Shown here: piece by piece, positions 13,824 to 20,558 of the stretch
Numbering within the stretch: position 1 is the stretch's first letter
Layout of the letters: every line of letters begins with the position of its first letter
Source: Armatimonas sp.
GTDB lineage: Bacteria; Armatimonadota; Armatimonadia; Armatimonadales; Armatimonadaceae
DNA length: 20,558 bases
NCBI RefSeq assembly: GCF_031410135.1
Contig: NZ_JANNYP010000607.1
Coordinates: 1-20,558 of the forward strand
Reading direction: 5' to 3'
The notes under the pieces: model-generated
Database searches by the model: none
What the model saw: only the letters and a program-made list of their open reading frames with translations
Told to the model about the DNA's origin: nothing
Position numbers and translations under genes: made by a program

Positions 13824-14477
13824 ATGGACGAGATCACGGTTCTGCTCACCGACGATCACGCGATTGTGCGTCAGGGAGTTCGGGCGTTTCTGGAGACCCA
13901 GTCGGATATTAAAGTCGTGGGTGAGGCGGGCAGTGGCGAAGAGGCCATCCAGCTCTGTGAGGCCCTCGCCCCGGATATCGTGCTGATGGACCTACTCATG
14001 CCCGGAATGGGGGGAGTGGAAGCCACACGGCGGGTAAAGGCGATTAGCCCTCGCACCCGGGTGATTGTCCTAACCAGTTATCATGAAGATGAGCACGTGC
14101 TTCCCGCGATTCGTGCAGGGGCACTCTCCTACTTACTCAAAGACGTGGCGGCGGGTGAGATTGCCACGGCGATTCGCAAAGCAGCAGCGGGGGAAGTCAC
14201 CCTCTCTCCGGCGATTGCCGCGCAGATGATGAAAGCAGTCACGGGGGAACGTAAGTCACCCGAGGCCCCTGGCCCGGAGTCGCCGTTGACAGTCCGGGAG
14301 CGGGAAGTGATTCGTCTGATTGCTGATGGGCTCTCGAACACCGAGATCGCAGAGAGGCTGTTCCTCTCGGAGAAAACCGTCAAGAGCCACGTCAGCAATA
14401 TCCTCGCTAAGCTCCATGTCACAGACCGCACGCAGGCGGCGGTCTATGCATGGCGCGAAGGCATCATGACCCGCTAG
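13824..14477 (+). CDS. Response regulator, NarL/FixJ family (REC domain plus LuxR-type HTH)
   Basis: ATG immediately follows the kinase TAA. REC motifs LLTDDH, phospho-acceptor region IVLMDLLMPGM, KAISPRTRVIVLTS. C-terminal LuxR HTH LTVREREVIRLIADGLSNTEIAERLFLSEKTVKSHVSNILAKL. Confidence 0.9.
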   Translation: MDEITVLLTDDHAIVRQGVRAFLETQSDIKVVGEAGSGEEAIQLCEALAPDIVLMDLLMPGMGGVEATRRVKAISPRTRVIVLTSYHEDEHVLPAIRAGALSYLLKDVAAGEIATAIRKAAAGEVTLSPAIAAQMMKAVTGERKSPEAPGPESPLTVREREVIRLIADGLSNTEIAERLFLSEKTVKSHVSNILAKLHVTDRTQAAVYAWREGIMTR

Positions 14478-15226
14478 CGACCGAAGCCACCGAAGCCGCC
14501 CATTCCGCCTCCCATACCACCGCCCATACCGCCCATACCACCGCCCATACCACCCATCATACCGCCGCCACCCATGCCACCCATGCCGCCGCCCATGCCA
14601 CCCATGCCGCCGCCCATGCCACCCATGCCGCCGCCCATCATGCCGCCCATGCCGCCGCCCATGCCGCCCATGCCGCCACCCATGCCACCCATGCCGCCGC
14701 CCATGCCGCCCATGCCACCACCACCCTGCATAGCTCGACTGGAGAAGGAGACATTAATAATCCCTCCTAATATCTGGCTTAAGTCCATCGGATCAAGATA
14801 GGTGAGGCTAATGCGCTCGTAGGCCGCATTTGGCCGAATGATTTCATCGGGTCCTATCGGAGCAGGTGCTGAGTCCTGAGGATTAGGATTGATCGCACGA
14901 GGCTTGACAATCCAGACACCGTTTTCTTTGGTGTAGGTAAGAGGCACACTAGCTGCACGCATGATCAGCTTCAGTGCATTCTCAAAGGGCTGCTCTGTAA
15001 TCTTAAGCGTGACAAATCCCACAACATTATTGTCAATGATATAGTTATTAATGCCTGCTTGCTTGAACGCAGCCTCAATCGTAGAACGAATGGGCGAGTC
15101 TTGCAGGTCAAAAGTAACATTATTTAATTTTTCTTGTGCAAATGCGCTCATAGGAAGAACAATTGCAATAGCAGATAACACCGCCCCAGCGGCAAATTTC
15201 CCGGTAAAATTCACTTTTTTCCTCAT
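14474..15226 (-). CDS. Sec-secreted STN/secretin-N-like domain protein with ~90-residue C-terminal Gly-Met repeat tail, (GGGMGGM)n
   Basis: Signal peptide MRKKVNFTGKFAAGAVLSAIAIVLPMSAFA|QEK. NVTFDLQDSPIRSTIEAAFKQAGINNYIIDNN..VTLKITEQPFENALKLIMRAASVPLTYTKENGVWIV matches the secretin-N/STN short domain pattern (VxLDLxDxPLxxALxxLAxQxGLNxxIDPxVxGxVTLxLxNVPxxQALDLILRxNGLxYxxEGNIIxV, recalled). The C-terminal tail is only G and M (plus a final GFGGFGR). Its stop codon overlaps that of the convergent response regulator (CTAG). Confidence 0.7.
   Translation of the reverse strand: MRKKVNFTGKFAAGAVLSAIAIVLPMSAFAQEKLNNVTFDLQDSPIRSTIEAAFKQAGINNYIIDNNVVGFVTLKITEQPFENALKLIMRAASVPLTYTKENGVWIVKPRAINPNPQDSAPAPIGPDEIIRPNAAYERISLTYLDPMDLSQILGGIINVSFSSRAMQGGGGMGGMGGGMGGMGGGMGGMGGGMGGMMGGGMGGMGGGMGGMGGGMGGMGGGGMMGGMGGGMGGMGGGMGGGMGGFGGFGR
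14490..14740. repeat. Tandem 21-nt-period DNA repeat (unit approximately CCCATGCCACCCATGCCGCCG on the plus strand) encoding the Gly-Met tail
   Basis: Units read directly from sequence. Early copies use CCATACC, later copies CCATGCC. The period corresponds to the 7-aa GGGMGGM unit. Confidence 0.8.
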
Positions 15227-15329
15227 CTTCTAAATACGAACAGTTTACTACTCGTATTCTAAACAAATTGGACACGAGGAAAGTTCATTCCTTCAAATTA
15301 TTTTTATTTTTTTCTAAAAAACAAATCGT

Positions 15330-15860
15330 CTAAAGCGACGAAAGTACATTTAAAAGCACGGGTAGCTGAAGATACGGTAGCTCAGGCGAGGTGAGTATCC
15401 CTGAGTAGAGGGCCGGTGGCGTTCCAGGAGGCACTTGAAGAATCAACTGTACAGTTTGAATGGCATCGGGCGCTAGCTGAAAAACCGCTGAAGAGGGCAG
15501 AAGTTGCTCGGGTTCAATACGATTTCCCGCCGCGCTCAGCAGCGGCGTACTTCGCAGGATAAACGTCACCGGGTCGGCTTGGTCGTTGTGCAGACGAAAG
15601 GGCAAGGCAACGTGCTCCCCCGCACGAACAGGCAGAGCGGGCATGAGGCTGTGGCGTGCCAAGGTCGGCAAGGCTCCTCGTGCGACCTCGGTGTCTAAGA
15701 TGGAGGAAGCCACTTCCAAGAGATCTTGCGGAAGCTCGGGCGCTGCCGCAGGCTCGGTCGGCTCGATAGCGTCACTAGGCTCCAGAGGCACCAGCGTGCG
15801 GCTCCGGTAGGTAGCCAAAGGGGTACAAACGTCGAGGGGTTTTCGTCGGTAGGTCTGCAT
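15330..15860 (-). CDS. Hypothetical protein, last gene of the encapsulin-associated operon
   Basis: Its ATG (15860-15858) lies 1 nt after the polyprenyl synthase TAA (TAAGATG). No recognisable motifs. Pro/Leu-rich; C-terminal half is beta-like (HVALPFRLHNDQADPVTFILRSTPLL...AVFQLAPDAIQTVQLILQVPPGTPPALYSGIL). Confidence 0.45.
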   Translation of the reverse strand: MQTYRRKPLDVCTPLATYRSRTLVPLEPSDAIEPTEPAAAPELPQDLLEVASSILDTEVARGALPTLARHSLMPALPVRAGEHVALPFRLHNDQADPVTFILRSTPLLSAAGNRIEPEQLLPSSAVFQLAPDAIQTVQLILQVPPGTPPALYSGILTSPELPYLQLPVLLNVLSSL

Positions 15861-15861
15861 C

Positions 15862-16890
15862 TTAAGAGTTCCGTGAGATCATGTAGCCGATCAAGTCTGA
15901 GAGAAACGTGCGGTGCTCCGAGGGGCCAGCGTCGGCAAAGGCTTGCTCAAAGGCATCCAGGGTGGCCTGGACAAAGCGCTCCGAGACGGCCTGGGCATGT
16001 GTGATACTGCCGTAGTGGGTCATGCGCTCCAGAATCCACGCGACATCGTCGGCACTGCGCTGTGGGCGGGTCTGTGCCAGAAAGCCTTCAAGACGCTCCT
16101 GCTCACTGCGACTTGCGTGCTGAAGCAAGTGCACCAGCATCAGCGTGCGCTTCCCCTCCCAGAGGTCGCCACCGATCTCTTTGCCGTAGCTCTTGTCATC
16201 GCCCACTAAGTTGAGCACATCGTCTTGGATCTGAAACGCCACACCCATAAAGTAGCCAAAGCGATTGAAGACATTGAGGTCTAGCCGATCTTTGCGAGCG
16301 ATCAGCGCCCCGATGCGACACGGATGGATAAAGCTGTACCAGCAGGTCTTCTTGAGGATCATCTCCAGGTAGTCGGCCTCGGTGACCGTGATGTCGTTGT
16401 CGCGTATCCAGCCCAGCTCCAGTGCCTGGCCTTCCAGCGACTGCAAGAGAAGGTGCTCAAACTCCTCGATAATGCGCCAGGTCAGTGGTCCCCCCAGCGT
16501 CGGGAGATTCTCTCGCACCAGCTTGAGGCTGAGCATGTTGAGCGCATCGCCCGCGTTTACGGCCAGCGGCATCCCGTACTGTGCCATCATCGTGGGCTGG
16601 GTGCGCCGAAACTCGCTCCCGTCTTCCACATCGTCGTGGACGAGAAACGCATTGTGGAGCATCTCCAGCGCCACAGCGGACTTGAGTGCCTCTTCCTCAG
16701 AGCCACCAAATGCCCCGCAGGTCGCCAGGCAGAGTGCCGGGCGCAGGCCCTTTCCTCTCCGCGCTAGGTGTTCGGCCATCGGGCCATAGAGATAGCGCTG
16801 GGGCTCGCGTGTGGGCAGCGCCGCCAGCAGGCCCGCCTGGATCAGCTCTCCGTAGTGCGCAAGCCGCTGGCGTAGAAGCTCCGTGGTCAC
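15862..16890 (-). CDS. trans-Isoprenyl (polyprenyl) diphosphate synthase family protein
   Basis: First Asp-rich motif LVHDDVEDGSEFRRTQPT (DDxxD...RR) and second motif GVAFQIQDDVLNLVGD (DDxxN variant). About 340 aa, typical for the family. GTG start overlaps the upstream stop (GTGA). Confidence 0.8.
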   Translation of the reverse strand: MTTELLRQRLAHYGELIQAGLLAALPTREPQRYLYGPMAEHLARRGKGLRPALCLATCGAFGGSEEEALKSAVALEMLHNAFLVHDDVEDGSEFRRTQPTMMAQYGMPLAVNAGDALNMLSLKLVRENLPTLGGPLTWRIIEEFEHLLLQSLEGQALELGWIRDNDITVTEADYLEMILKKTCWYSFIHPCRIGALIARKDRLDLNVFNRFGYFMGVAFQIQDDVLNLVGDDKSYGKEIGGDLWEGKRTLMLVHLLQHASRSEQERLEGFLAQTRPQRSADDVAWILERMTHYGSITHAQAVSERFVQATLDAFEQAFADAGPSEHRTFLSDLIGYMISRNS

Positions 16891-18755
16891 GACAGGACAT
16901 CCTCAGGCATCAGGGGCAGGATATGCACGCGTCCGGTGCGGCTCTTGGGCGCTACGTTATTAAGACCAAGCTGGCTGAGATGAGCTAAAAGCTGCTGGCT
17001 CACGGCAGTAGGCGCTAGCGGGGCGGCTCCGGGTGTGCCTTGATTGAAGACCTGCACCGCGCTCTCGATCAGCGACATCGTGGCAAGCCCGAGGCGCACT
17101 TGGGAGTCGTCCCACGGCAGGCCCTGCTGGTAGCGCAGGCGGTCTAGGGCACGCCAGGGTTCAAACAGCTCCGGCTCATGAAGCTTCCAGAGCTGGCACG
17201 GTGTGGCGCTTACGCCCGAGGCGCTAAGAATTCCATTGACGGCACGACGGGCGGCTTCGTTAGCCCCCTCCATGGTCGCCAAGTCCGTGTAGGTCCGCAC
17301 GTAGTCGGAGGCGAGAAAGAGATTGGGAATCGCGGTCACTGCCTCGGGCCGCAGCCGCCAGGTATTGATCAGATTCACCAGAAGCGGCTCTTTGTTCTCC
17401 AGCACGCCGCTGGCATTGCGCTTGATATCAGGATCTAAGAACCAGCCGTGCAGATGGCGATCCTGAAGAATCTCTTGGCCGTTGATATTGATATTGATAC
17501 TGCGCTTGAGCTGCTCCCAGACCTCGGCCTTGATCTCCTCGCGCGTACACTGCTTGGCGGTCTTTCCATTGAAGCCGAGCGCCTCCCACTCGGAGATATC
17601 CACAGAGAGAATGCCTTGGATCGTGCCATCGCCATAGTGGCTCAAGTCAATCTCAGGCCAGAACTGTTTTTGCGACACGGACGTCAAGGCCCACGGCGAG
17701 TCAATATAGATCGTGTGGCCGTGTGTGAGCGGAGCATCTTTGGTAAGGTAGAGCTGGAGACCGTTCATCCAGTCCACACCGCCTTGGCTCAAGGGAAGGA
17801 GATTCCCCAGCGATGGATCGGCGTGAAGTAACTCGGGGGTAAGAAGCTGGGCCATGCGCTCGACAGGAACCGCGCAGATATAGTAGTCCCCGACGGCCTC
17901 AAACGTCCGCCCGTGCTGCGTGACCTGTGCACTGGTGATCTTGCCATCGGTGCAGCGAATCGCCTGAAGCTCGGACTCAAAGTGGTAGACCACGCCGCGC
18001 TGCGTCAGATACGCAAGCCAAGGGCCAATCCAGACCTCGTTGGTCGGGCCATTGAGAAGCCTATCGCTACTGGTACCGGGCTCCACCACATCAAAGAGGA
18101 GCTGTACTAAGATATCCCCGATGGTTTTTGTGCTCGCGAGGCGCGCTTTAGCCGCGACCAGCGAGCGCGTGATCCCAAAGCCTAAGAACTTCTGGTAGGC
18201 CACCGAGCGCGTCTCCGCTCCGATAAAGTCCCACCAGTCGAGCTTCTCGTACTCGTCGAAGCGCCGCTCCTGACAGGATGTGATAATCTGCCAGATCTTC
18301 GAGCCAAAGAACGTCAGCTCCTCGGGCGTTAATCCCAAGTCGTTGCCAAAGAGCAAGCTCAAGTCATCGAGAACCACCCGAATGTCTTCCAGCGAGCGCG
18401 GCGAGCGTGAGGGGAGCACAAACGAGTTTCTCTCAAAGCGGGCCATCTCAATGCGGGTCGTGTCTACCAAGTTATCTACCACGGAGCTACTCGCCCCGTA
18501 GGGGATGCGGCTCATCGTGTCGATAACATGCTTATAAAACCGAGGGAAGAAGCGGAAGCCGTGCTCACCGGGCAGGTCTTTTCGCATCCCGTCAGGCCCT
18601 GTCGTCGCAGAGCCCGGCACCGGGATGCTCCGGGCCTTGCCACCGGGAATGCTCTGGCGCTCGTAGACCTCCACGGCAAAGCCCCGCTCGATCAGCTCGT
18701 GCGCAGCGCTTAGCCCGGCGACTCCCCCGCCTAAAATGACGACTTTCTTCTTCAC
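16887..18755 (-). CDS. FAD-dependent oxidoreductase of the amine-oxidase / phytoene-desaturase (CrtI-like) superfamily, with ~110-aa C-terminal extension
   Basis: N-terminal dinucleotide-binding motif KKKVVILGGGVAGLSAAHELIERGFAVEVYERQSIPGGKARS. C-proximal FAD-binding motif LFLASDYVRTYTDLATMEGANEAARRAVNGIL, typical of flavin amine oxidase/CrtI enzymes. Another ~110 residues follow this motif. GTG start overlaps the encapsulin stop (GTGA). Confidence 0.75.
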   Translation of the reverse strand: MKKKVVILGGGVAGLSAAHELIERGFAVEVYERQSIPGGKARSIPVPGSATTGPDGMRKDLPGEHGFRFFPRFYKHVIDTMSRIPYGASSSVVDNLVDTTRIEMARFERNSFVLPSRSPRSLEDIRVVLDDLSLLFGNDLGLTPEELTFFGSKIWQIITSCQERRFDEYEKLDWWDFIGAETRSVAYQKFLGFGITRSLVAAKARLASTKTIGDILVQLLFDVVEPGTSSDRLLNGPTNEVWIGPWLAYLTQRGVVYHFESELQAIRCTDGKITSAQVTQHGRTFEAVGDYYICAVPVERMAQLLTPELLHADPSLGNLLPLSQGGVDWMNGLQLYLTKDAPLTHGHTIYIDSPWALTSVSQKQFWPEIDLSHYGDGTIQGILSVDISEWEALGFNGKTAKQCTREEIKAEVWEQLKRSINININGQEILQDRHLHGWFLDPDIKRNASGVLENKEPLLVNLINTWRLRPEAVTAIPNLFLASDYVRTYTDLATMEGANEAARRAVNGILSASGVSATPCQLWKLHEPELFEPWRALDRLRYQQGLPWDDSQVRLGLATMSLIESAVQVFNQGTPGAAPLAPTAVSQQLLAHLSQLGLNNVAPKSRTGRVHILPLMPEDVLS

Positions 18756-19687
18756 TTTTGCTTGGTGCTAGGGTCGGCCAGCTCAAAGGAGCAAATCGCT
18801 TCCGTTTCCTTAACTCGGTAGGTGAAGCGCTCGTAGACACGGAAGTGGTACTGGGCTTCGTCGGAGATATTGAGAAACTGAACCGTGGGCGGCGTGGCGA
18901 CGACGAGATCAATGGGATCGCCGCAGAGGGAGACCACCACACCACAGCGAGGCGGCAAGATCCCGGAGCGCTGGAGCGGCATCCCCAGCATCGGGGTGAT
19001 GCGATCACTGGGCAGCACCAGCGAGCCACGCTCGGGCGTAAAGGCCTCGACATAGGCCTGATCCCCCAGCACACAGGCAAACGGCCCGAGATGGCCATTT
19101 TGCTCCAACGCGGTGATCGCGGCCACGATGATGCGGACGATACTCTCCGAAAACGGGGGCTCCGCGACGGGTATCCGATAGCCTGTGGGTCGAAGCTTCA
19201 AGCCCTCCTGGAATAGCCCCTCTATCTTCTGTCCACTCGTGACAAGACACTGCTTGGGTACTAAAATATCGTTGAGCTCCTCACGGCTCGGGTTACGCCT
19301 AGGCAGCCCCCGAAAGGTAATCGCGTCCTCGGCTCGTGCCAGGATATTGGCCCCCCGTCGAAAGGCCAGCAAGGCATCCTCGATCCGCTCCTGCGCCATC
19401 TGCTGCTGCTTGAGATAGACATGTACCGTGAGCGAGCAGAGCGTCAAGGTCTCCACATCATCCACACGCAGGGGGGTACCCGCCTCGTCAAACTCCAGCA
19501 GGTTCTGACGCCGCACCACTTCCGCACTCTTTGCCAGTGGGCCATAACACGGAAGAAACGAGCCCGCCACGCTGGACTTAGTGACTTCTTCCTGAACCGT
19601 CTGATTGATCTGGTTCCACTGATCTTGCGACCACTCAATTTGCCGACTAGGACTCTCCATAGCTTTTACGCCTTTCTTTCTTACCAA
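18752..19687 (-). CDS. Encapsulin nanocompartment shell protein (HK97-fold, Family-1-like); probable start ATG at 19660 (302 aa)
   Basis: By-eye alignment to recalled Family 1 sequences. SQDQWNQINQTV fits T. maritima LTEKQWQEIDNRA. LEQNGHLGPFACVLGDQAY fits M. xanthus EncA LNEQGHFGPYAVVLSPRLY. CGVVVSLCGDPIDLVVA...YHFRVYERFTYRVKETEAICSFEL fits EncA SGVVVSTGRENMDLAVS...HPFRVLEALLLRIKHPDAICTL. Length is typical. The ORF-track start is a TTG (19687); an in-frame ATG lies at 19660. Confidence 0.8.
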   Translation of the reverse strand: MVRKKGVKAMESPSRQIEWSQDQWNQINQTVQEEVTKSSVAGSFLPCYGPLAKSAEVVRRQNLLEFDEAGTPLRVDDVETLTLCSLTVHVYLKQQQMAQERIEDALLAFRRGANILARAEDAITFRGLPRRNPSREELNDILVPKQCLVTSGQKIEGLFQEGLKLRPTGYRIPVAEPPFSESIVRIIVAAITALEQNGHLGPFACVLGDQAYVEAFTPERGSLVLPSDRITPMLGMPLQRSGILPPRCGVVVSLCGDPIDLVVATPPTVQFLNISDEAQYHFRVYERFTYRVKETEAICSFELADPSTKQK

Positions 19688-19702
19688 AGCGATTAGGAAG
19701 AA

Positions 19703-20558
19703 TTACCGAACCGCATAAACATCATACGAAATAACAAAATATTCTTTATAAACAACGCCTATTGCAATCGTAAAAAGCCTATTCATCCAAATATAGTCCC
19801 TATTCGATGTTAAAAACCGACAATTCAAACGAGCAGTCGGCTTTTCAGGCCAATTATTGTCTATAAAATTCTTAAATCCATTAATCCCTAATTCAAAAAC
19901 GCCTGTTGCCGTCATATAGATCAAAGCACCGTCATCTGTCTCAAGACAGGCATGTATATCAGGATCACCAATGCCGTCTCTGCGAATGGTCATCCAGTCT
20001 CCCCCGTGCTTTTTCACGACACCTCGTATTAAAGGCCCGGAAAATATACCTTCTTCCACAAACCAGTTCACTTTCAGGCCTTCCGGGGTATCACCAAAGA
20101 CTTCCAGGTTCTGTGTCAAATTTACGGTCAAGGAAAAAAGATAGTCCAGGTGAAAGGGAAAACGTGTCTGCGTAGGAGTCCGTAAAGTAAGCTCATTTTC
20201 TCTGGCTGTCGTCAGTTCTGATTTCATTTGAAACGACGATGGGAGTTGCTGATAGGTCGCAATGTCGGGCACCTGGCGACCGCCACAGTGAAAGACAGGT
20301 ACGTACTCCACAAGGCACTCTTGGCCGACATCGGGAAAGCTTGCCTGGTAGTACTGTGTGGCGCTGGCATAGTCAGTGCGCACTAAGACGGCGGGGATTG
20401 TCTGTGTCCGACCACTGTCAATACGACAGTGGACGACAACTCGGTTTCCCGGCTTGATCGGTGAGACGCCGACCGTGAGGGTCTGAGGCGACGGCAAAAA
20501 CTCACCATTCGCGGAGACCGGCGCGGGTGCATCGCTCGTGCCATACCAGAGGGTCAAG
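19703..20558 (-). CDS. DUF3237-like beta-barrel domain protein. The AT-rich DUF3237 unit probably starts at the internal ATG 20228 (175 aa); the GC-rich upstream 105 codons are of doubtful coding status and the ORF runs off the window.
   Basis: LTVNLTQNLEVFGDTPEGLKVNWFVEEGIFSGPLIRGVVKKHGGDWMTIRRDGIGDPDIHACLETDDGALIYMTATG...NRLFTIAIGVVYKEYFVISYDVYAV matches the recalled DUF3237 pattern (TPEG.R.i.pi.GG.f.GP.lrG.VlpGGaDW...rpDG...lDaRYtL.TDDGAlIyv...G...). Base composition switches sharply at about nt 20250, right at the in-frame ATG. The start at 20557 is only a TTG created by the window edge. Confidence 0.55.
   Translation of the reverse strand, partial: LTLWYGTSDAPAPVSANGEFLPSPQTLTVGVSPIKPGNRVVVHCRIDSGRTQTIPAVLVRTDYASATQYYQASFPDVGQECLVEYVPVFHCGGRQVPDIATYQQLPSSFQMKSELTTARENELTLRTPTQTRFPFHLDYLFSLTVNLTQNLEVFGDTPEGLKVNWFVEEGIFSGPLIRGVVKKHGGDWMTIRRDGIGDPDIHACLETDDGALIYMTATGVFELGINGFKNFIDNNWPEKPTARLNCRFLTSNRDYIWMNRLFTIAIGVVYKEYFVISYDVYAVR

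Follow-up and report, generated by a model that had tools for sequence, protein, structure and literature searches.

Which protein, if any, does the divergent encapsulin encoded in Armatimonas sp. enclose, and by what signal would it recognise it? The stretch analysed here, called the window throughout, covers positions 1-20,558 of contig NZ_JANNYP010000607.1 (NCBI RefSeq assembly GCF_031410135.1). Open reading frame reading and profile searches delimit on its reverse strand a compact five-gene operon (15330-20557), which encodes, in this order, a DUF3237-domain protein, the encapsulin shell, a flavin adenine dinucleotide (FAD) enzyme, a polyprenyl diphosphate synthase and a 176-amino-acid protein. 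No operon protein ends in a canonical Family 1 tag (LTVGSL or GSLxIGSLK), as the first-pass annotation of this DNA had reported together with four of the C-termini, all of which translation confirms. Both the FAD enzyme and the shell match NCBI records of Armatimonas sp. at 100% identity. That annotation had named as the best candidate for cargo loading an extension of some 110 residues at the C-terminus of the FAD enzyme and, within it, the sequence SQLGLN as a loose echo of TVGSLK.

Our analysis indicates that the region was well chosen and the motif was not. Long tails on this enzyme appear tied to the encapsulin operon, which makes the extension the best candidate on sequence grounds; the conserved element is a terminal G-[RK]-V-x-I-[ILV]-P, read GRVHILP in the window. 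We favour, with a probability of about 60%, the reading that GRVHILP is a divergent Family 1 targeting peptide, carried on an unusually long linker, and that the FAD enzyme is the cargo. The annotation's interpretation is thus partly supported. The sequences and models show how the tail is built, how it is conserved, that it goes with the operon, and how the shell is folded; that the peptide binds the shell, that the enzyme lies in the lumen, and what chemistry takes place there is what we infer.

The tail of the FAD enzyme

The argument turns on the following features of the shell and FAD genes:

18752-19660, reverse strand: encapsulin shell protein, divergent Family 1, 302 amino acids (Linocin_M18 match and fold)
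16887-18755, reverse strand: FAD enzyme of the amine-oxidase / phytoene-desaturase superfamily, 622 amino acids, C-terminus ...PLMPEDVLS
17112-18755, reverse strand: residues 1-548 of the FAD enzyme, its catalytic core, with the family-wide GLPW at the end (Pfam Amino_oxidase and NAD_binding_8)
16890-17111, reverse strand: shell-operon-specific tail, residues 549-622 (74 amino acids), delimited by tail length versus operon context
17040-17105, reverse strand: tail helix 1, residues 551-572 (DSQVRLGLATMSLIESAVQVFN), a predicted helix (predicted local distance difference test, pLDDT, 51-60)
16959-16976, reverse strand: SQLGLN, residues 594-599, a low-conservation stretch overlapping the low-confidence helix 583-595
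16914-16934, reverse strand: candidate targeting peptide GRVHILP, G608-P614, read from the DNA; the clade-wide terminal motif
16887-16913, reverse strand: LMPEDVLS, eight atypical residues after the motif, with the stop codon (read from the sequence)

The Pfam Amino_oxidase match stops at residue 510 of 622, so that the figure of about 110 residues beyond the last FAD motif stands. The part specific to shell-linked enzymes is shorter and comprises residues 549-622 only, because residues 511-548 (...HEPELFEPWRALDRLRYQQGLPW), with the GLPW end, are conserved family-wide, including in members with no shell gene nearby. Translation confirms the sequence of this tail, NQGTPGAAPLAPTAVSQQLLAHLSQLGLNNVAPKSRTGRVHILPLMPEDVLS. 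Its first helix is semi-conserved in the shell-linked clade (aligned consensus D-D-x-L-V-x-x-G-L-x-x-L). In the AlphaFold2 model of the enzyme, computed from 22 aligned sequences and with a mean pLDDT of 71, residues 568-622 have pLDDT values below 50, with a low-confidence helix at residues 583-595 (LLAHLSQLGL), and the tail is predicted to be disordered. The stretch with the motif reads ...KSRTGRVHILPLMPEDVLS here; the consensus is SRSGRVRIIPQ.

Information content was computed over 116 non-redundant tails anchored at their C-termini. Six terminal positions, G-[RK]-V-[R/Q/E/H]-I-[I/L/V], carry 2-3.9 bits each; in most cases P or S comes next, then one more residue. The 35 positions before the motif, rich in Ala, Gly, Ser, Pro and Thr, carry 0.2-0.6 bits. 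The motif G-[RK]-V-x-I-[ILV]-P ends one to three residues before the C-terminus in 120 of 125 tails, and the linker ahead of it, about 30-110 residues long, varies in both length and sequence. Variants are found in more distant clades: GLRRLR[LIV]V in Polyangia, TGN[VI]RFVE in Actinomycetota, [TR]R[VI][IR]ITQK in Alphaproteobacteria, RLRIVQKP in Nitrospiraceae, and RTKVRISQSS in one further locus. This pattern argues for strong purifying selection on the terminal motif across phyla, while the linker seems to drift freely. The FAD enzyme is the sole carrier: in 33 operon loci, no second protein with a GRVxIIP-type ending was found beyond spurious open reading frames. The tail with its motif is, moreover, the only feature common to all systems in which the FAD enzyme and the synthase are not fused.

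An extension present only in encapsulin-linked copies would, according to the first-pass annotation, be diagnostic. We therefore scanned relatives of the enzyme, taking one genome per species (80 loci, flanks up to 10 kb), and recorded for each locus how far the tail extends beyond the residue aligned to W548 and whether shell, DUF3237 and synthase genes are present; the contrast was restricted to the 67 loci with adequate flanks. Homologues at 59-72% identity are mostly 606-703 amino acids long, and a few, of 549 amino acids, stop directly after GLPW. In Variovorax HW608, for example, the same operon encodes a 650-amino-acid enzyme with the end GGRVEIIPN, and one of the 549-amino-acid homologues has unrelated gene neighbours. 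Among the 67 loci, 29 of the 30 long tails (55-138 residues, or a fusion to the synthase) come with the operon, whereas all 37 short tails (3-42 residues after GLPW) occur where the operon is absent (Fisher P 4e-18). The expected restriction thus holds, the sole long tail without the operon being that of locus L026 (10001-12151), a 169-residue tail with transmembrane-like segments. Five further look-ups centred on the shell gene all gave the same FAD and synthase neighbours, and the operon is conserved, with varying gene order, across at least seven phyla.

In family members without the operon, a short basic helix, amphipathic or hydrophobic, often forms the C-terminus, for instance LPLFFETIQRILIFLKRIF (loci L017, L025, L040, L042, L056, L060, L072 and L077), and their sequences suggest that the free-standing enzymes associate with membranes or lipids. 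Three loci are irregular. In L016 (9914-13991), two FAD genes stand in tandem; the product of the first is devoid of the motif, and that of the second ends in RRRIRITQKA. In L022 (7672-11946) and L030 (8143-10332), FAD, shell or synthase genes are frameshifted, and the displaced frame of L022 still ends in GSGRVEIIPN. These oddities are either pseudogenes or assembly errors.

The shell, the enzyme pair and cargo loading

By its fold and its matches in the PDB, the shell protein is a divergent Family 1 encapsulin. It scores 65.6 bits with Pfam Linocin_M18, above the cut-off of 24.3, and 83.1 bits with NCBIfam encap_f1, below the cut-off of 100. Its AlphaFold2 model (pLDDT 92, predicted template modelling score 0.90) includes the N-terminal helix, at residues 12-29. 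A Foldseek search of the PDB ranks M. xanthus EncA and the shells of B. methanolicus and Q. thermotolerans highest (template modelling (TM) scores of 0.7-0.8, 20-23% identity); the top 50 are all encapsulin-type HK97 folds, 49 of them Family 1 encapsulins (TM 0.6-0.8), and encapsulins were the only matches in a sequence search of the PDB. As a Family 1 encapsulin, the protein would assemble into an icosahedral shell. No phage genes were found beside the shell operons in about 30 genomes and the five shell-centred look-ups, and metabolic neighbours recur instead. The best-conserved part of the shell subfamily is the luminal N-helix segment W-T-x-x-Q-W-...-V-x-E-E-...-F-L-P-x-x-G-P-L, whose EE pair might be a partner for the basic residues of the motif, a possibility that we mention only as a lead.

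In fold, the FAD enzyme comes closest to rice phytoene desaturase (PDS; 5mog, TMt 0.78), and next to amine oxidases and oleate hydratases. The enzyme scores far below every NCBIfam equivalog cut-off (HpnE, PDS, CrtI; 83 versus 283 bits for HpnE), and a phmmer search against PDB sequences gave no match at E <= 0.001. The synthase, whose gene always follows the FAD gene in related loci, matches Pfam polyprenyl_synt with 214 bits over residues 34-286 of 342 and has no terminal extension; with NCBIfam IdsA (198 bits) and f2_encap_cargo4 (194 bits, cut-off 450) it stays below both cut-offs, and its sequence resembles IdsA or geranylgeranyl diphosphate synthases. No phytoene or squalene (head-to-head) synthase was found in the operon. 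Overlaps of 4 nucleotides join the shell stop to the FAD start and the FAD stop to the synthase start (16887-16890, GTGA, the synthase start being GTG), and the synthase is translationally coupled to the FAD enzyme.

In 11 loci of the scan (L027, L028, L032, L033, L035, L037, L044, L046, L047, L051 and L052), as well as in L084 and probably L087, the FAD enzyme and the synthase form one polypeptide. These fusions, of about 970-1010 amino acids, constitute a subclade nested within the shell-linked clade, with members in Bradyrhizobium (for instance Bradyrhizobium sp. STM 3557, L052), Variovorax saccharolyticus, Pseudonocardiaceae and Gemmatimonadaceae. In these loci the shell gene is retained, and the linker still has its full length, about 110-130 residues, with a well-conserved first helix.

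If the tail is a cargo-loading module, its three parts would be the semi-conserved helix, the variable disordered linker rich in Ala, Gly, Ser and Pro, and the short conserved peptide. That a conserved peptide forms the C-terminus, behind a disordered linker rich in Ala and Pro, we counted in favour of a tag because Family 1 tags are described in this way (PMC11126975, PMC7925596). By analogy with Family 1, the peptide would bind, during assembly, as an extended strand in a lumen-facing groove near the N-terminal helix of the shell protein, and would tether the phytoene-desaturase-like flavoenzyme inside the shell. The untagged polyprenyl synthase could feed the compartment from outside, or be carried in via the flavoenzyme, to which it is fused in the derived subclade. 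The compartment may then confine the oxidation or desaturation of a polyprenyl-derived lipid, and the DUF3237 protein could be a cofactor-less tailoring or cyclising enzyme. The most economical model is a terpenoid-type pathway in which the shell would confine the FAD-dependent step. The broader proposal, namely a phylogenetically widespread, undescribed Family 1 isoprenoid system with a new class of targeting peptide on a long tether, of which a derived lineage packages the fused synthase too, we hold to be about evenly balanced.

Several observations weigh against GRVHILP as a targeting peptide. In a neighbour-joining tree of the catalytic cores, the shell-linked enzymes all fall into one clade; tail and operon were therefore acquired once, the 29 and 37 loci are not 66 independent observations, and the Fisher P value overstates their independence. 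What still informs is how long the association has been retained, and that the motif is selectively conserved against a drifting linker. Next, the protein of the window is itself an outlier: nine residues (P614 and LMPEDVLS) follow the scored core GRVHIL, versus one to three in its relatives. LMPEDVLS looks like a translated former spacer, because GAGGA, the ribosome-binding site for the overlapping start of the synthase, falls within its codons. Immediately behind ILP, TGA occurs out of frame (CCC CTG ATG), and the sequence suggests that an ancestral stop just behind the motif was lost through a small indel.

The fusions, for their part, are devoid of the terminal motif and show only a weak internal island (KGSVYVPAP, GRSSVLP or RRAAYIPPP). 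Such a pattern is compatible with an internalised, weakened tag, if the internal targeting motifs of Family 2 are taken as an analogy; it is equally expected if the peptide docks the synthase and becomes redundant on fusion. The motif is also without the widely conserved GSL of Family 1 tags, and the linkers, of 50-130 residues, are far longer than the 10-20 residues, Ala/Pro-rich, that are reported for Family 1 (PMC7925596). Lastly, residues D39 and D214 of EncA, which anchor the arginine of the tag (PMC11126975), correspond to P37 and M227 in a phmmer alignment with the window's shell. Since these acidic residues are not kept, the binding chemistry must differ, which is an argument for a different chemistry rather than against binding as such.

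Four other explanations were considered. The tail might be a tether or docking peptide for the polyprenyl synthase, channelling its product to the flavoenzyme, with a shell that is loaded otherwise or acts differently. The FAD and synthase genes are indeed always adjacent, coupled in the window and fused in the nested subclade; the decay of the terminal motif in the fusions is what a covalent linkage that makes docking redundant would produce, and the tail is associated with the synthase in exactly the same loci pattern as with the shell. We nevertheless think this explanation unlikely: a C-terminal docking peptide of this kind on trans-prenyltransferases would, to our knowledge, be without precedent, whereas Family 1 cargo as a rule bears its C-terminal peptide behind a disordered linker, and the shell would be left with no recognisable cargo signal. 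Fusion has, moreover, brought no shrinkage of the linker, and the helix is even better conserved there. The N-helix region of the shell is conserved equally in fused and unfused systems, which suggests that its ligand persists; for choosing between the rival explanations, this equality is uninformative. Alternatively, another operon component could ensure loading, while the tail of the FAD enzyme would serve lipid or membrane association, oligomerisation, or as a degradation signal. Candidates are the N-terminus of the 176-amino-acid protein (MxxYRRKPL and a helix), the DUF3237 protein's N-terminal domain, and small Ala/Lys-rich helical proteins. The long variable N-terminal region of the 176-amino-acid family does bear short conserved elements, genes for small helical proteins separate the shell gene from the FAD gene in many loci, the short amphipathic or hydrophobic tails of the relatives without a shell designate the C-terminus as a site of lipid-related adaptation, and the fusion clade does without the terminal motif. 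None of these components is universal, however, in contrast to the tail and motif in unfused systems: L088 is devoid of DUF3237, the window encodes no small helical protein, and YRRKPL is present in three sequences only. We consider this second explanation distinctly unlikely.

It could also be that the shell is empty or non-encapsulating, and that the association between tail and operon is the historical accident of one clade. The single gain of the tail, the absence of a canonical tag and the fact that Andreas & Giessen were unable to assign cargo to such 'Minor' operons all speak in this direction. The strong purifying selection on a terminal motif of 6-7 residues across phyla, while the linker drifts, and the strict maintenance of the shell gene beside the enzyme pair through extensive horizontal spread and changes in gene order make such an accident very unlikely. 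As to SQLGLN, the nearest relatives, Armatimonadota and cyanobacteria, do have a loose L-x-x-(G)-L patch (FLSSLLGGLG, IADFYGLAG, LSALQTLS) some 20-25 residues ahead of the terminal motif. Proteobacterial, actinobacterial and myxobacterial members have no such patch, its positions carry 0.2-0.6 bits over the 116 tails, and SQLGLN sits in a low-confidence helix and not at the terminus, so that its being a divergent TVGSLK and the targeting peptide is hardly credible.

The other operon components and their surroundings

The remaining features of the operon are the following:

19703-20557, reverse strand: DUF3237-domain protein, N-terminus cut by the window end, C-terminus ...VISYDVYAVR
15862-16890, reverse strand: short-chain polyprenyl diphosphate synthase, 342 amino acids, C-terminus ...DLIGYMISRNS
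15330-15860, reverse strand: 176-amino-acid protein, C-terminus ...LLNVLSSL
15326-15341, reverse strand: terminator-like hairpin, then TTTGTTTTTT (T-run), at the operon end; a consensus match only, the count of such sites being not above shuffled expectation

The DUF3237 protein matches PF11578 with 87.6 bits over residues 136-283, behind an extra N-terminal domain of about 135 residues, and its gene adjoins the shell gene in most related loci. PhnH, which cyclises a prenyl alkene via hydroalkoxylation without any cofactor, belongs to the DUF3237 superfamily. Within the N-terminal domain, LTVGVS (QTLTVGVSPIK, residues ~26-31, ~20470-20490, reverse strand) was tried as an LTVGSL-like tag and rejected: it is internal, in a strand-rich domain, and is not conserved in orthologues (LWFTVFPAH at this place in Variovorax), so that the resemblance is probably due to chance. 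DUF3237 proteins of beta- and gammaproteobacteria have a conserved C-terminal extension, GQPLxSSGLPxV...PLTGDxH, that is absent in the protein of the window (L001 5440-6369, L006 7520-8488, L032 7894-9024).

The 176-amino-acid protein gave no Pfam or NCBIfam match. It consists of a disordered N-terminus (start MQTYRRKPL), a conserved helix and a beta-sandwich-like domain, with the end ...YSGILTSPELPYLQLPVLLNVLSSL. Its C-terminal ...LLNVLSSL was also rejected as a tag, being the conserved last beta-strand of the beta-sandwich domain, as in YSGLIQAMGSKYFKAVLSLEIL. Homologues, free or fused, are encoded in many operons, and the protein could be a second cargo or an adaptor. In this family, the N-terminus is variable and disordered, the helix reads LxxAxxILDxE, and three members, including that of the window, start with M-x-x-Y-R-R-[KS]-P. 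The domain is also found fused to a C-terminal domain of about 400 amino acids in Variovorax and to DUF3237 in Nitrospiraceae (family loci: L005 13124-13885, L022 13128-15206, L001 11020-13008, L031 6820-8145).

Many operons contain, between the shell and FAD genes, one or two genes for small (100-200 amino acids) Ala/Lys/Glu-rich, probably all-helical proteins, whose composition is like that of phasins or apolipoproteins (L001 7468-7992, L006 9558-9953, L015 8512-9036, L018 9012-9620, L027 9588-9971, L022 9308-9975). Almost always, a large STAND-type regulator with Guanylate_cyc and AAA_16 domains, and in some cases TPR, is encoded beside the operon (L001 12992-16192, L084 3746-6967, L085 from 14747 on, L086 1523-4963, L087 2721-5969, L088 from 10907 on); open reading frames of regulator size, ~1070-1230 amino acids, lie upstream in many further loci. 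The window is truncated on the corresponding side.

Elsewhere in the window, the genes have unrelated functions: GH10, CotH, VTC, an ABC transporter, a rhomboid protein and a two-component system. Directly downstream of the terminator-like site of the operon, a 250-amino-acid protein (14474-15226, reverse strand) begins with what resembles a signal peptide and contains a segment like secretin-N/PilQ, whose NCBIfam score falls far short of the cut-off; GGM/GGMGGM repeats make up almost the whole C-terminal half, and tandem DNA repeats with periods of 9-42 nucleotides are found at 14495-14722.

Comparison with known systems

The FAD enzyme shares with plant and cyanobacterial PDS (5mog), HpnE and CrtI the fold, the N-terminal GxGxxG FAD motif and the Amino_oxidase domain, and it has a polyprenyl synthase as neighbour; it differs from them in that identity is only 17% and equivalog scores are below cut-off. 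Among encapsulins, Family 2B, whose cargo is 2-methylisoborneol synthase, geosmin synthase or polyprenyl transferase, likewise associates a shell with isoprenoid enzymes, including a polyprenyl synthase, and with disordered targeting regions, and Family 2 provides the precedent for an internal targeting motif. Family 2 shells, however, have no Linocin_M18 match and contain a cNMP-domain insertion, and their cargo is recognised through long N-terminal targeting domains with GPTGLGT-type motifs. In contrast to the transferase cargo of Family 2B, the synthase of the window is without extension and reaches 194 of the 450 bits required for f2_encap_cargo4.

If the targeting reading is true, enzyme-in-shell terpenoid biosynthesis would extend from Family 2B to Family 1, and a shell subfamily that spans at least seven phyla, with members in Cyanobacteria, Bradyrhizobium, Variovorax, Myxococcota and Actinomycetota, would be given a function. 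Isoprenoid oxidation would be compartmentalised, for which a reactive or hydrophobic intermediate, or hydrogen peroxide, are possible rationales. A sequence-distinct targeting peptide would be added to the encapsulin engineering toolbox, and the natural FAD-synthase fusions would offer a handle on the organisation of multi-enzyme cargo.

Peroxidases and ferritin-like proteins are the main cargo known for Family 1 encapsulins, whereas the cargo candidate here is a 68-kDa PDS-like flavoenzyme, neither DyP nor ferritin-like. The arrangement is otherwise that of Family 1: the enzyme gene adjoins the gene for a Linocin_M18/HK97-fold shell, and the enzyme ends in a C-terminal peptide behind a disordered linker rich in Ala, Pro and Gly. 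Known Family 1 tags are NTGGDLGIRK in T. maritima Flp, (P)LTVGSLR(R) in M. xanthus EncB/C/D, and the DyP/Flp consensus DGSLGIGSLKG; they bind through two hydrophobic residues one position apart and a basic residue on an acidic patch (PMC7925596, PMC11126975). The present motif resembles them in its hydrophobic-x-hydrophobic core (V-x-I, against L-G-I or L-T-V) and in its basic residues.

The literature that we searched gave no description of this type of operon beyond a 'Minor' listing, and the Acetobacteraceae encapsulin paper concerns DyP systems. The listing is that of Andreas & Giessen 2021 (PMC8346489), in which the shell A0A1C6PT54 of Variovorax sp. HW608 is classed as Family 1 'Minor', with no cargo accession or peptide. 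The HW608 locus is an orthologous operon, with genes for DUF3237, the shell, the FAD enzyme (end GGRVEIIPN), the polyprenyl synthase and a homologue of the 176-amino-acid protein. The shell subfamily itself was thus already catalogued there, and what our analysis adds to it is a candidate cargo and a candidate tag.

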